64,000 nucleotides of DNA, taken from positions 1 through 64,000 of the IMG/VR virus record IMGVR_UViG_3300035698_022762; one strand, 5' to 3'. Each line of letters starts with the position of its first letter. Position 1 is the stretch's first letter. Shown here piece after piece: positions 56,056 through 60,899 of this stretch. This DNA comes from a virus. The notes below the pieces were generated by a model. The model had not been told where the DNA came from and searched no databases. It saw nothing but the letters and a program-made list of their open reading frames with translations. Both the position numbers and the translations under genes were made by a program.

Positions 56056-56084
56056 TTGCGTTTTTACAAACAGTATGTTATAAT
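56056..56084 (+). promoter_or_regulatory. Sigma70-type promoter upstream of the nuclease-cas run
   Basis: TTGCGT-17 nt-TATAAT with extended TGn; 14 nt before ATG 56099. Confidence 0.75.
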
Positions 56085-56098
56085 ATTCGAATATTAAA

Positions 56099-57118
56099 AT
56101 GGAAGAAAGCTTAAAACAAAAAAACATAAAATTATTTCAAGAATGGCATGAAAAAAATAAGGAGTCACCTGAAAACATTTCTTGGTATAGCTCTAAAAAG
56201 GTTTGGTGGAAATGTGATGCAGGGCATGAATGGGAAGCAAAGGTTTTCTCTCGTTTTAGAAAAAACAGTAAATGCCCATTTTGTTCTGGAAGACGGGCTT
56301 GTGAGGAAAATTCTTTAGGAAAAATAAATCCAGAATTGGTTTCGGAATGGCATGTTAAAAACATTAAAACTCCTTTTGATTATGTTTCTGGTAGTACTTT
56401 CAAGGCTTGGTGGAAATGTAAAAACAAACATGAATGGCAATCTGAAATCCGCAACAGAACTCAAAGAAAACATGGTTGCCCATTTTGTTCAAATATGTCT
56501 GTAGATGAGGACAATTGTGTTGAAAAAACACATAAACATCTTATGCATGAATGGCATTGCAATAATAAATACAAACCTAATGAATTAGTAGCAGGCAGTG
56601 CAAAAATAATTTTATGGCAGTGTTCTAAATGTAGTCATGAATGGTGTGCTAGAGTCGCTTCTAGAGCATTAGAAAAAAAGAACTGCCCTATATGTGCAAA
56701 TTATATCAAAAGCATAACAATGTCCGAAAAGATTCTAAATGGATGGAACAGTTATAAAAATTCTTGTTTAACAGGGTATTTCTTTTCTGATAAAAATAAC
56801 AAAAAAATATTCTTTAGAAGTTCTTATGAAAAAAAAGCCTTTGAAATTTTAGAAAATGATGATGAGGTTGCAAACTATAAAATAGAACATATAAAAATAA
56901 AATATAAACATGAAAACAAATATAGGTTTTACATTCCTGATATATTGGTGGAATACGTCAATGGGGAATCACAATTGATTGAAATTAAACCTTTGAAAAT
57001 GTTCAAAATTAAAGGTAAAAAGAAACTCATCTCTAAACTAAAGGCATTGTCAAAGTATAGTAAAGATAACAACATGAAGAAATGCTTAATCTGGCATGAG
57101 AAACATTTAGGGATTTAA
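56099..57118 (+). CDS. Zinc-ribbon repeat (DUF4379-like x3) protein with C-terminal TnsA-like PD-(D/E)XK endonuclease
   Basis: Three EWH..N...WW.C..HEW.......R....CP.C units; FRSSYE, YIPDILVEY, LIEIKP. Confidence 0.8.
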   Translation: MEESLKQKNIKLFQEWHEKNKESPENISWYSSKKVWWKCDAGHEWEAKVFSRFRKNSKCPFCSGRRACEENSLGKINPELVSEWHVKNIKTPFDYVSGSTFKAWWKCKNKHEWQSEIRNRTQRKHGCPFCSNMSVDEDNCVEKTHKHLMHEWHCNNKYKPNELVAGSAKIILWQCSKCSHEWCARVASRALEKKNCPICANYIKSITMSEKILNGWNSYKNSCLTGYFFSDKNNKKIFFRSSYEKKAFEILENDDEVANYKIEHIKIKYKHENKYRFYIPDILVEYVNGESQLIEIKPLKMFKIKGKKKLISKLKALSKYSKDNNMKKCLIWHEKHLGI

Positions 57119-58250: not shown

Positions 58251-58262
58251 GAAATTAAATCA

Positions 58263-60899
58263 ATGTTAAATGAAATAGATTTGAGAATATGGGGTAAATG
58301 GGATGACAAAAAGAAAGCCATGCATCCTGCTTTGCTCCATATGGTAGATACAGGTTTTGTCATACAAGAACTGCTTGGAACTTTTAGCACTCATGAATTG
58401 GATTTTGTTTCCAAAAAAATGAATTTAAATATAAATGAAGCAAAAACATTTTTGACATTCATGATGCCGTTGCATGATTTAGGAAAAATAACACCAGAAT
58501 TCATCAAACAAGTAGAGGAAGCTGCAGACTTAATAAAAGATGACTACTGTTTCTACCCAAATGATGAAAAAATAAGACATGAATTGTTTTCGATGCATCT
58601 TTTGAAAAACGTTTTGCTCCCTGATTTCGCAGCGAAAAATGACGTATGTGCTGTTATTGGTGGACATCATGGGAAGTTTTCCATTCTGCCATCAAAGTTT
58701 CCTCCCAAAAAAATAAAAAGATTCAAAAGATTTTGTGGTCGTGATGACGAAAAATGGTGTAAACAACAAAAATTGGCTTATGACTTTCTAACAAGCATAT
58801 TTCCAATAAGTGAAGAAATTCTAAATAAAGTAAATATAAATCCAGATTTATATTTCTTTTTAGCTGGTTTGATTTCTAATGCAGATTGGATTGCTTCTGA
58901 CAGCAATCTATTCCCCCTTTCTGGTTTCGACCAATCCCTTGATCAATATGTTGTGAAAAGCAAAGGATTGGCAAAAAAAGCCTTTAAAACAATTGATTGG
59001 AATCTTTGCAAGATTAAGAACCAACAGTTCGATGAAACTTTTGGGTTCCTTCCTTATCCTTCTCAAAAAATAATCATAAATGAAATAGAAAAAATAACAT
59101 CACCATGTCTGATGATAATAGAAGAATCTACTGGAAGTGGCAAGACAGAAATAGCACAACATTCTGCGTCATTTTTAATGTCAAAACTAAAACATCGTGG
59201 CATTCAAATGTGGTCACCTACCAGAACAACATCTGATTCTGTTTTCAAAAGAATGGTTAGCTTTTTAAGAAAAACGGTTGATGGGAAAGCCAACATACAG
59301 CACATACATTCAAATTCTAAAAGAAATAAAGATTATTTAGAATTAAAAAATAAAGACAACGATGACAACGCCACTGTAGTTGCGAAATATTGGTTTTCTA
59401 GTGGCAGAAAAAGATTAATGTCGCAGTTTAGTACAGGTACTGTTGATCAAATAATGAAAGGGGCAATTTACAATAAATATTTTTACATGCCCCTTTATGC
59501 TTCTTTTAATAAAGTGGTGATAATTGATGAGATACACAGCTATGATGTGTTTATGGGCAATTTAATTGAAGTTTTAATTGAAAAATTAAAAGAAATGAAT
59601 TGCTCAATCATATTGCTGTCTGCAACTTTATCTAATTCAACACGTCGAAAACTAATTAATGCTTATGGTGCAGAAGCAAATGATGAGATCACGAGATATC
59701 CTAGACTTACAGTTTGTCAAAACAACAACTCTAACTGCACACAACTTTTTACACATAGACACAAAAAAATAAAATTAGAACATTTGCATTTAAATCCACC
59801 AACTCCACAAAAAAACGAAATAAAATCATATGACGAATTAGCACAAAAAGCATTATGTAAAATAGAAAATGGTGGGGCTATAAATATCGTTTGCAACACT
59901 GTAAAACAATCACAAAAAATATATAATGCTTTCAAGTCTCTTAATGCAAGTCCATTGTTGCTTCATTCAGGATTTACAAAGAAAGATAGAAGCAGGATAG
60001 AACAAAACATCATTGACAAATATGGAAAAGAATATAATTCAAAAAGAGATAAAACCATTGTAATAGGAACGCAAATAATCGAACAAAGTTTAGATATAGA
60101 TTTTGATTATACTTTTTCTTTCATCTGTCCTATAGACTTTTTGATACAAAGACTAGGAAGGTTGTGGCGTTTTTATAGAACAAATGAGTTTGAAATTCCG
60201 AATGGGCAAATTGGGTTTTCAGTTTTTAGCAAAACTCCAGAAGCCACCATAATTTATGAATATTCTGACGAAAAAGAATTAGAAAGTTATGGCATTTATT
60301 CGTCTTATATAATGCATTTAACTCAAAAAAATATAACTCCTTTAGACGAAGTGGTGTTGCCTGATATGACGGACTTGCTAATAAACAATGTGTACGAACA
60401 AATTGATATAGAATCAAACAATCAAGAAGAAAAATTGAAAAAAAAATACAATAAAGCTGAACAAGACGCCAATTCTGAATCCATAAAAGTTACTTTATCT
60501 AAAGACAACAAATACACGCTTAATGAAGAAAACAACTATGATGATTCAAACACTCGTGACATTAGTACGCCTACAATGAATGTAATACTATTGTTTAAAA
60601 AAGGTAACAATTGGACATTGGGGGAAGGCATGCCAAATATAAATTTTAGAAAAAAGGAATTCAGTAGCGAAGAAATAAATTTGATTACGCAGAATTCTTG
60701 CCCAATTTCAGGTAAACCATTATTTAATTATTTTAATAACAATAAATTTTCTGAATGGAAGAATATATTTGAATTAAAATATTATTCCATTTTGATATTA
60801 GAAGAAGATGGGAAACAAACAATCTACGGCGACAACTGGAAAGCAGAATTGCAATATGACAGTACTATAGGACTGTGTAAAAATGTTTTTTGGCAATGA
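58263..60899 (+). CDS. cas3: CRISPR-associated HD nuclease/helicase Cas3 (type I-E)
   Basis: HPALLHMVD, HDLGK, GGHHG, NADWIAS; TGSGKTE, GTVDQ, IIDEIH, LSAT, NTV, LHS, TQIIEQSLDIDFD, QRLGRLWR. Confidence 0.96.
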   Translation: MLNEIDLRIWGKWDDKKKAMHPALLHMVDTGFVIQELLGTFSTHELDFVSKKMNLNINEAKTFLTFMMPLHDLGKITPEFIKQVEEAADLIKDDYCFYPNDEKIRHELFSMHLLKNVLLPDFAAKNDVCAVIGGHHGKFSILPSKFPPKKIKRFKRFCGRDDEKWCKQQKLAYDFLTSIFPISEEILNKVNINPDLYFFLAGLISNADWIASDSNLFPLSGFDQSLDQYVVKSKGLAKKAFKTIDWNLCKIKNQQFDETFGFLPYPSQKIIINEIEKITSPCLMIIEESTGSGKTEIAQHSASFLMSKLKHRGIQMWSPTRTTSDSVFKRMVSFLRKTVDGKANIQHIHSNSKRNKDYLELKNKDNDDNATVVAKYWFSSGRKRLMSQFSTGTVDQIMKGAIYNKYFYMPLYASFNKVVIIDEIHSYDVFMGNLIEVLIEKLKEMNCSIILLSATLSNSTRRKLINAYGAEANDEITRYPRLTVCQNNNSNCTQLFTHRHKKIKLEHLHLNPPTPQKNEIKSYDELAQKALCKIENGGAINIVCNTVKQSQKIYNAFKSLNASPLLLHSGFTKKDRSRIEQNIIDKYGKEYNSKRDKTIVIGTQIIEQSLDIDFDYTFSFICPIDFLIQRLGRLWRFYRTNEFEIPNGQIGFSVFSKTPEATIIYEYSDEKELESYGIYSSYIMHLTQKNITPLDEVVLPDMTDLLINNVYEQIDIESNNQEEKLKKKYNKAEQDANSESIKVTLSKDNKYTLNEENNYDDSNTRDISTPTMNVILLFKKGNNWTLGEGMPNINFRKKEFSSEEINLITQNSCPISGKPLFNYFNNNKFSEWKNIFELKYYSILILEEDGKQTIYGDNWKAELQYDSTIGLCKNVFWQ

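Follow-up and report, generated by a model that had tools for sequence, protein, structure and literature searches.

The IMG/VR virus record IMGVR_UViG_3300035698_022762 is 80,388 nt long, and its first 64 kb, the whole stretch of 64,000 nt analysed here and called the window below, carry two adjacent open reading frames (ORFs) between a gp23-like major capsid gene and the cas3 gene of a type I-E CRISPR-Cas system. ORF1 (56099..57118, plus strand, 339 aa) encodes a zinc-finger array joined to a nuclease of the TnsA fold, and ORF2 (57120..58250, plus strand, 376 aa) encodes a protein of the Hef family in which no nuclease core is recognisable. We consider it probable that the two are free-standing homing-endonuclease-type selfish genes, occupying a hotspot directly downstream of the major capsid gene of this giant-phage clade. 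The closeness of the pair to CRISPR-Cas looks like an accident of position, with the cas operon adjoining the two genes because it occupies the same hypervariable region that starts after the capsid gene.

CheckV puts the completeness of the 80-kb record at 11%, which points to a fragment of a very large phage; absences given below for this record cover the fragment only and not the rest of the phage genome. The public DNA runs that contain the stretch are all labelled as salt-lake metagenomes. Contigs from the salt-lake runs bridge the end of the capsid gene, ORF1 and ORF2 (55877-58187) as well as the junction of ORF2 and cas3 (58107-58863 and 58007-58393), and the gene arrangement is therefore real rather than an assembly artefact. 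Re-reading of the ORFs returned ORF1, ORF2 and cas3 at the coordinates of the first-pass annotation, all on the plus strand and separated by the same gaps of 1 nt (ORF1/ORF2, where the junction reads TAA-A-ATG) and 12 nt (ORF2/cas3), and its domain calls for the three products were upheld by Pfam, PHROG and Foldseek. Pfam also confirmed Cse1, Cse2 and Cas7. A megablast search with positions 54435-61000 gave zero matches among 50,697 phage records.

The slot downstream of the capsid gene

A scan of IMG/VR with the capsid protein found 379 relatives, the best 80 of which (75-81% identical) were taken with up to 8 kb of flank, and slot counts refer to the 58 of these 80 whose flank downstream of the capsid gene is 1.5 kb or longer. 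In 38 of the 58, a gene for a TnsA-like and/or Mom-like protein lies within the first 2.5 kb of this flank, and in 37 no other gene comes before it. It is found 59-231 nt past the capsid stop codon, may be on either strand and is in some cases one of a tandem pair. Its architecture differs from locus to locus: at 18 relative loci a Mom-like and a TnsA-like domain share a single chain of 504-545 aa, in 28 ORFs (including ORF1 of the window) the TnsA-like domain is joined to DUF7487, NUMOD3 or other modules, and a few slot ORFs are Mom-like only. The fusions at loci L018, L040 (9604-11130), L062, L074 and L083, among others, begin with the Mom-like domain and continue with the TnsA-like one, the reverse of the classic Hef layout, in which the nuclease precedes the Mom-like domain.

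Homing endonuclease genes are known to cluster by capsid and other essential genes (PMC10448857), and the view in the first-pass annotation that free-standing genes of this type insert beside gp23 holds well for this clade, given a slot filled in 37 of 58 relatives. ORF2 fits the same pattern, being free-standing and sporadic and lying beside an essential gene, in a slot filled by differing architectures on either strand. Past the slot, gene content varies widely among the relatives, and judged from these flanks the capsid gene marks the edge of an apparent hypervariable region. The co-occurrence with cas genes for which the first-pass annotation had suggested looking at gp23-downstream loci did not materialise: slot genes are common there, while the downstream flanks of the 80 relatives, which extend up to 8 kb past the capsid gene or to the end of the contig, contain no cas gene. 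Nor was a type I-E Cas7 found anywhere in the five largest relative records (223-533 kb). Three records among these largest capsid relatives, G001, G002 and G005 (those of L011, L021 and L008), are labelled 'provirus' in IMG/VR, a surprising class for T4-like giant phages and perhaps an artefact of classification.

In the window itself the capsid gene (54435..55892, plus strand; Pfam Gp23, 5e-81) is the last of a conserved head module, preceded by a 608-aa gene, a prohead protease gene (phrog_207, 1.3e-47) and a 309-aa gene. It is followed by an intrinsic terminator at 55917..55949 (plus strand; 14-bp stem, 5-nt loop and T run), an equivalent of which is present after the capsid gene in relatives.

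Domain architecture of ORF1 and ORF2

The N-terminal part of ORF1 (residues about 12-200, 56132..56698, plus strand) holds three treble-clef zinc fingers of the DUF4379 type (Pfam, 4e-46, in 3 stretches) and is presumed to be the DNA-binding part. A TnsA-like PD-(D/E)xK nuclease core follows at residues 227-318 (56777..57052, plus strand; PF08722, 1.7e-8), in which S241, E244, D281, E295 and K297 are invariant in an alignment of 30 proteins, comprising ORF1 and 29 TnsA-like proteins of related phages. These five residues are the predicted PD-(D/E)xK catalytic set, with an intact S-E-D-ExK motif. The AlphaFold model has a predicted local distance difference test (pLDDT) score above 93 for residues 222-339; the zinc-finger part, where the alignment had no depth, was modelled poorly. 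Homologues of the zinc-finger array carry varied C-terminal domains, including Vsr-type (PF04480) and MTES_1575 restriction endonuclease (REase)-type ones, and such a variety of predicted partner domains is the modular pattern of homing-type nucleases. ORF1 thus combines an intact catalytic motif with a nuclease fold joined to a DNA-binding module, as in a free-standing PD-(D/E)xK homing-type endonuclease.

The top Foldseek matches of ORF1 are to Tn7 TnsA (1t0f/1f1z, E 1.5e-5), with which it shares the fold of the N-terminal domain and the E...D...ExK motif. It differs in lacking the TnsA C-terminal domain, ending 21 residues past the nuclease core, and TnsA_like_Actin (NF033179), the only NCBIfam TnsA-type model matched, gives 23.1 bits against a cut-off of 110. 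With this sub-threshold score, an intact Cas3 and no Pfam match to rve or TniB (the TnsC-type ATPase) in the 80-kb record, we rejected the reading of the locus as a CRISPR-associated transposon (CAST), about which the first-pass annotation had already voiced a well-founded doubt. ORF1 resembles TnsA in fold only and is not a TnsA transposase subunit.

ORF2 begins with two zinc-ribbon modules (residues about 18-125, 57171..57494, plus strand; phrog_681, 1e-12 over residues 5-121, and a weak DUF4379 match), modelled as two repeated hairpin-helix units with a pLDDT of about 90-97. It ends in a Mom-like GNAT domain, the 'Hef' C-terminal domain (residues 168-372, 57621..58235, plus strand), which a hidden Markov model built in this analysis matches at 3.9e-90; the mean pLDDT of the ORF2 model is 93. 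The protein matches phrog_559 ('HNH endonuclease', 1e-56) and phrog_3339 ('homing endonuclease', 1.5e-43), and aligns at ∼30% identity over 97% of its length with Hef-like proteins of Campylobacter phages, one of which is annotated as C-terminally similar to Hef of phage U5. The family is large, with 18,726 cluster representatives at E ≤ 0.001, and homologues of ORF2 occur in other contexts in 369 phage records, at up to 11 places per genome, with thymidylate synthase, tail sheath and topoisomerase genes among their neighbours.

For the C-terminal domain Foldseek ranks phage Mu Mom first (8bv8_A; E 1.3e-8, probability 1.0, 18% identity), followed by GNAT acetyltransferases. All 8 family-invariant residues are kept in ORF2, and a GNAT-type Q-x-x-G-x-A motif can be read from its sequence. 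ORF2 therefore shares the Mom-like GNAT fold with Mu Mom and differs in falling below the gathering score of the Pfam Mom model (PF25680), to which it has no match even at E ≤ 10. The same model is matched by 54 of 86 members of the ORF2 family (E ≤ 0.001), and is reached by relatives at the capsid slot with 39 bits against a gathering score of 27.1. The Mom sequence was not among the PDB entries found with a profile built from the ORF2 domain. Mom itself uses glycyl-tRNA (PMC13219725).

The catalytic domain of Hef-type endonucleases is a Vsr-like EDxHD nuclease, and these enzymes have been placed in the EDxHD family of I-Bth0305I (PDB 3R3P; Taylor et al. 2011, PMC3239194). The ORF2-family profile matches 3r3p at E 2.5e-4 by way of the nuclease core that most members carry. 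ORF2 itself, when aligned with the Campylobacter phage Hef-like proteins and P0246, is deleted across this EDxHD core, which holds the E-x-N/D-G-x-x-W-H motif, and the alignment also leaves it without the HNH insert found in P0243, P0244 and P0247, the proteins nearest to it. On this alignment ORF2 is a Hef-family protein with predicted zinc ribbons and a predicted Mom-like domain, and without a recognisable nuclease. Its closest homologues (P0243, P0244, P0247, P0253 and P0256) retain a degenerate EDxHD remnant and have an HNH-type motif (H-x-D-H ... N-L) inserted upstream, which suggests replacement of the nuclease domain within the Hef family.

Known Hef and Hef-like proteins (U5; Hef15 of Campylobacter phage NCTC12673; the F-Lim enzymes of Dickeya phage LIMEstone1; PHROG 559/3339) share with ORF2 the zinc-ribbon N-terminus, the Mom-like C-terminus and a free-standing position next to an essential or virion gene. 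ORF2 differs from them in having no Vsr-like EDxHD core, there being instead a separate TnsA-fold nuclease gene upstream. Proteins that combine Mom and nuclease domains have been annotated by others as Hef-like homing endonucleases. Mom-REase fusions of jumbo phages have been described, with a predicted modify-and-cut (restriction-modification-like) role (Iyer, Anantharaman, Krishnan, Burroughs & Aravind 2021, PMC7824862), and consist of the same two domains, a Mom-family GNAT and a nuclease of the restriction-endonuclease fold; relatives of the salt-lake phage carry such a fusion in the same slot. Here, by contrast, the domains are encoded by two adjacent, translationally coupled genes, the nuclease gene first and the Mom-like one second, and both products have a zinc-finger array. 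As ORF2 is without a nuclease, and as both kinds of domain occur fused in relatives, the two genes may represent a split form of Mom-nuclease proteins with translational coupling, an idea that we hold tentatively and with rather more doubt than conviction. A complex prediction for ORF1 205-339 with ORF2 126-376, both with alignments, scored 0.00 and is evidence for neither side.

Two further derivations of the pair were considered. ORF2 as a 3'-truncated Mom-TnsA fusion, cut by insertion of the cas genes, was rejected, as its Mom-like domain reaches the normal C-terminus of the family, as in most members. A frameshifted ORF1-ORF2 fusion was set aside: the ORF2 frame is +1 to that of ORF1 and is open for a mere 9 nt ahead of the start codon, and coupling between stop and start codons explains the junction more simply.

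The adjoining type I-E system and transcription into it

The cas3 gene (58263..60899, plus strand) is intact and encodes the HD nuclease and the helicase (Pfam Cas3_HD, 1.4e-32, and Cas3-like_C_2; NCBIfam PRK09694, 3e-92). It is followed by cse1, cse2 and cas7 (60960..64000, plus strand; Pfam), of which cas7 extends past the window end. On the contig the operon continues with cas5, cas6e, cas1 and cas2 and then a 15-repeat CRISPR array with a period of 60 at contig 66579-67444, forming a complete type I-E system that spans contig 58263-67444. Spacers 10 and 11 of the array are identical, and the last repeat, which comes after a 19-nt spacer, is degenerate. Within cse1 a 39-nt tandem repeat at 62187-62271 (2.2 copies, 97% match, the first two copies identical) constitutes an in-frame 13-aa duplication.

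The closest Cas3 proteins in 5.8 billion sequences are 40% (P0124) and 36% (P0125) identical; no close Cas3 relatives were found in IMG/VR, and a Cas3 alignment run against viral and metagenome contigs found relatives only at ≤30% identity. A comparison set of other type I-E loci, 4 viral and 21 metagenomic, was retrieved with the Cas3 alignment, and none of these 25 has homologues of ORF1 or ORF2 in its flanks. PADLOC likewise gave no match for ORF1 or ORF2. When compared with the phage's own 80-kb record and with 105 related or cas-bearing loci, the spacers gave only chance matches of 13-15 nt, and hence no self-targeting is seen in the 80-kb part. The GC content of ORF1, ORF2 and the cas genes is 0.30-0.35, against 0.336 (34%) for the phage, an equality that leaves no mark of a recent joint arrival of the pair and the cas genes.

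A lytic phage in which CRISPR-Cas and homing-endonuclease-type nucleases both belong to a variable, conflict-related gene set is Vibrio phage ICP1, whose CRISPR-Cas is of type I-F. There the chimeric, homing-endonuclease-derived nuclease Odn is said, going by the title of a 2021 paper from Barth and colleagues, to replace the CRISPR-Cas of ICP1 rather than adjoin it. Odn belongs to a different nuclease family (T5orf172) from those of ORF1 and ORF2.

As the first-pass annotation had noticed, a terminator follows the capsid gene and none is recognised from ORF1 to cas3, where our terminator scan found none either. Past cas3 there are only weak stems of 5-8 bp, at 61254 (cse1), 62197 and 62236 (cse1, where hairpins of the tandem repeat account for these terminator-like matches) and 63258 (cas7), and the scan found nothing comparable to the post-capsid terminator through the window end. 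The promoter-like site at 56056..56084 (plus strand; TTGCGT, 17 nt, TG-n-TATAAT), read from the sequence, had been called strong. Its extended -10 box, TGnTATAAT, is indeed present, but the strength is not borne out: the -35 box TTGCGT matches at 3 of 6 positions, at a spacing of 17 nt, and a consensus promoter scan does not list the site. In 10 kb, 41 promoter-like sites were observed against 41.6 expected in shuffles, so that promoter matches carry no weight in this 34% GC DNA; others lie inside ORF2 (57883-57910 and 58170-58198) and upstream of cse1 (60902-60929). The -10 box ends only 14 nt upstream of the ORF1 start codon. A Shine-Dalgarno sequence is missing in front of ORF1 but present, in an AGGA-type form, for ORF2, cas3 and most cas genes. 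At 20088-20106, 28078-28099 and 56076-56101 TATAAT lies 5-14 nt before an ATG with the Shine-Dalgarno sequence absent, most other genes having AGGA, and such genes may give short-leader or leaderless transcripts, or may use a phage-specific promoter class.

In relatives without cas genes, the capsid gene is also followed by a terminator, a sigma70-like promoter, a ribosome-binding site and then a nuclease gene. Recurrence of this layout indicates that the promoter-like site belongs to the nuclease unit and not to the cas operon. Co-transcription of ORF1 and ORF2 with cas3, as put forward in the first-pass annotation, is plausible, and read-through from the putative nuclease promoter into cas3 is likely, as no terminator lies between. 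Read-through of this kind is normal where free-standing endonuclease genes have inserted and where phage genes are densely packed, and is no sign of shared function.

Weighing the explanations

As selfish genes of the homing type, ORF1 and ORF2 would be transcribed as a unit from their own promoter behind the capsid terminator, the ORF1 nuclease would cut the DNA of co-infecting, unit-free relatives close to the 3' end of the capsid gene, and recombinational repair would then copy the unit in. ORF2 could either aid target recognition or modify adenines to protect the carrier. Some observations weigh against this account. Having no nuclease of its own, ORF2 falls short of a complete homing endonuclease; ORF1 and ORF2 each occur just once in the 80-kb fragment, which means that mobility is deduced from the relatives; and the gap of 12 nt between ORF2 and cas3, with no terminator, would equally fit a functional operon. 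A cut-and-modify conflict module with no part for CRISPR could also be envisaged, in which ORF2 'momylates' the phage's own adenines, ORF1 attacks host DNA or the DNA of rival phages when it is unmodified, and the activities are split between two coupled genes. This overlaps with the selfish-gene account, since a selfish element could work in the same way. The Mom-like fold of ORF2 is confidently modelled and keeps its family-invariant residues, the Q-x-x-G-x-A motif and the TAA-A-ATG coupling are consistent with a module of this sort, and 18 relatives have a Mom-like domain and a TnsA-like one in the same protein, a type of fusion for which Iyer et al. 2021 predicted this function (PMC7824862). 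ORF2 itself is however below the Pfam Mom threshold, and patchy occupation of a single slot, in both orientations and with reshuffled domains, marks homing elements and not a fixed defence gene. In addition, the one family member that has been tested, Hef of U5, cleaves nrdB and behaved as a homing endonuclease (PMC2988022). We therefore regard the conflict module as unlikely, while giving it some room, and retain homing-type selfish genes as the probable identity of the pair.

Readings that tie the two genes to the adjoining CRISPR-Cas system fare far worse. The first-pass annotation had proposed a new CRISPR accessory or self-protection module, in which ORF1 and/or ORF2 act with Cas3/Cascade or shield the phage genome from its own interference complex, and both the tight, terminator-free spacing of ORF2 and cas3 and the phage-like base composition common to ORF1, ORF2 and cas3 agree with it. 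Co-occurrence, though, fails in either direction: 37 of the 58 relatives, none with cas genes nearby, have the slot filled and homologues of ORF2 are present in 369 phage records, whereas the 25 other type I-E loci have none. ORF1/ORF2-type homologues thus occur independently of cas genes, which leaves an accessory role unsupported, and with no PADLOC match for either protein and no spacer matching the phage's own 80-kb record we consider it extremely improbable. The other proposal of that annotation, that related phages acquire the entire 11-kb cas-CRISPR cassette by co-conversion after endonuclease cleavage beside the capsid gene, could draw on the cassette directly adjoining the nuclease genes and on the ability of homing endonucleases to co-convert flanking DNA and bracket exchanged 'islands' (PMC10448857). 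Against it, no second cassette was found in IMG/VR or JGI metagenomes, where the closest Cas3 is ≤30% identical, and contigs of four salt-lake runs (3-5x depth) contain no joint that lacks the homing endonuclease genes or the cassette. Moreover, the genes after the array have no counterpart in the flanks of relatives, save fragmentary matches to two IS607-type transposase genes (TnpB-like at 1 locus, TnpA N-terminus at 4 loci), and one tested gene from downstream of the array is absent from the five largest relative records, so that no right-hand homology arm is visible. Spread of the cassette by homing therefore seems to us scarcely credible. It is also very unlikely that a split two-chain Mom-nuclease element, on one transcript with cas3, has moved or is able to move the type I-E cassette from one giant phage to another, or that modification by ORF2 tunes the targets of Cas3/Cascade.

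The transposase genes mentioned above lie in a minus-strand block at about contig 69770-76620, beyond the window, as a 408-aa TnpB-like ORF, judged by sequence alone, and an ORF whose N-terminus is of the IS607 TnpA type. Downstream of the capsid gene in relative L055 there is a partial match to the 408-aa protein, at 61% identity.

ORF1 and ORF2, read as homing-type genes, are one more case of selfish nuclease genes behind the capsid gene, and the pair has no place among candidate CRISPR accessories. More unusual at this locus is that a T4-like giant phage of salt lakes encodes a full type I-E system, including Cas3, Cas1 and Cas2, together with an array. For the Hef family, the natural split seen here, with a core-less Hef protein encoded behind a separate TnsA-fold nuclease gene, could serve as a two-protein system for probing the Mom-like domain of Hef-type endonucleases.

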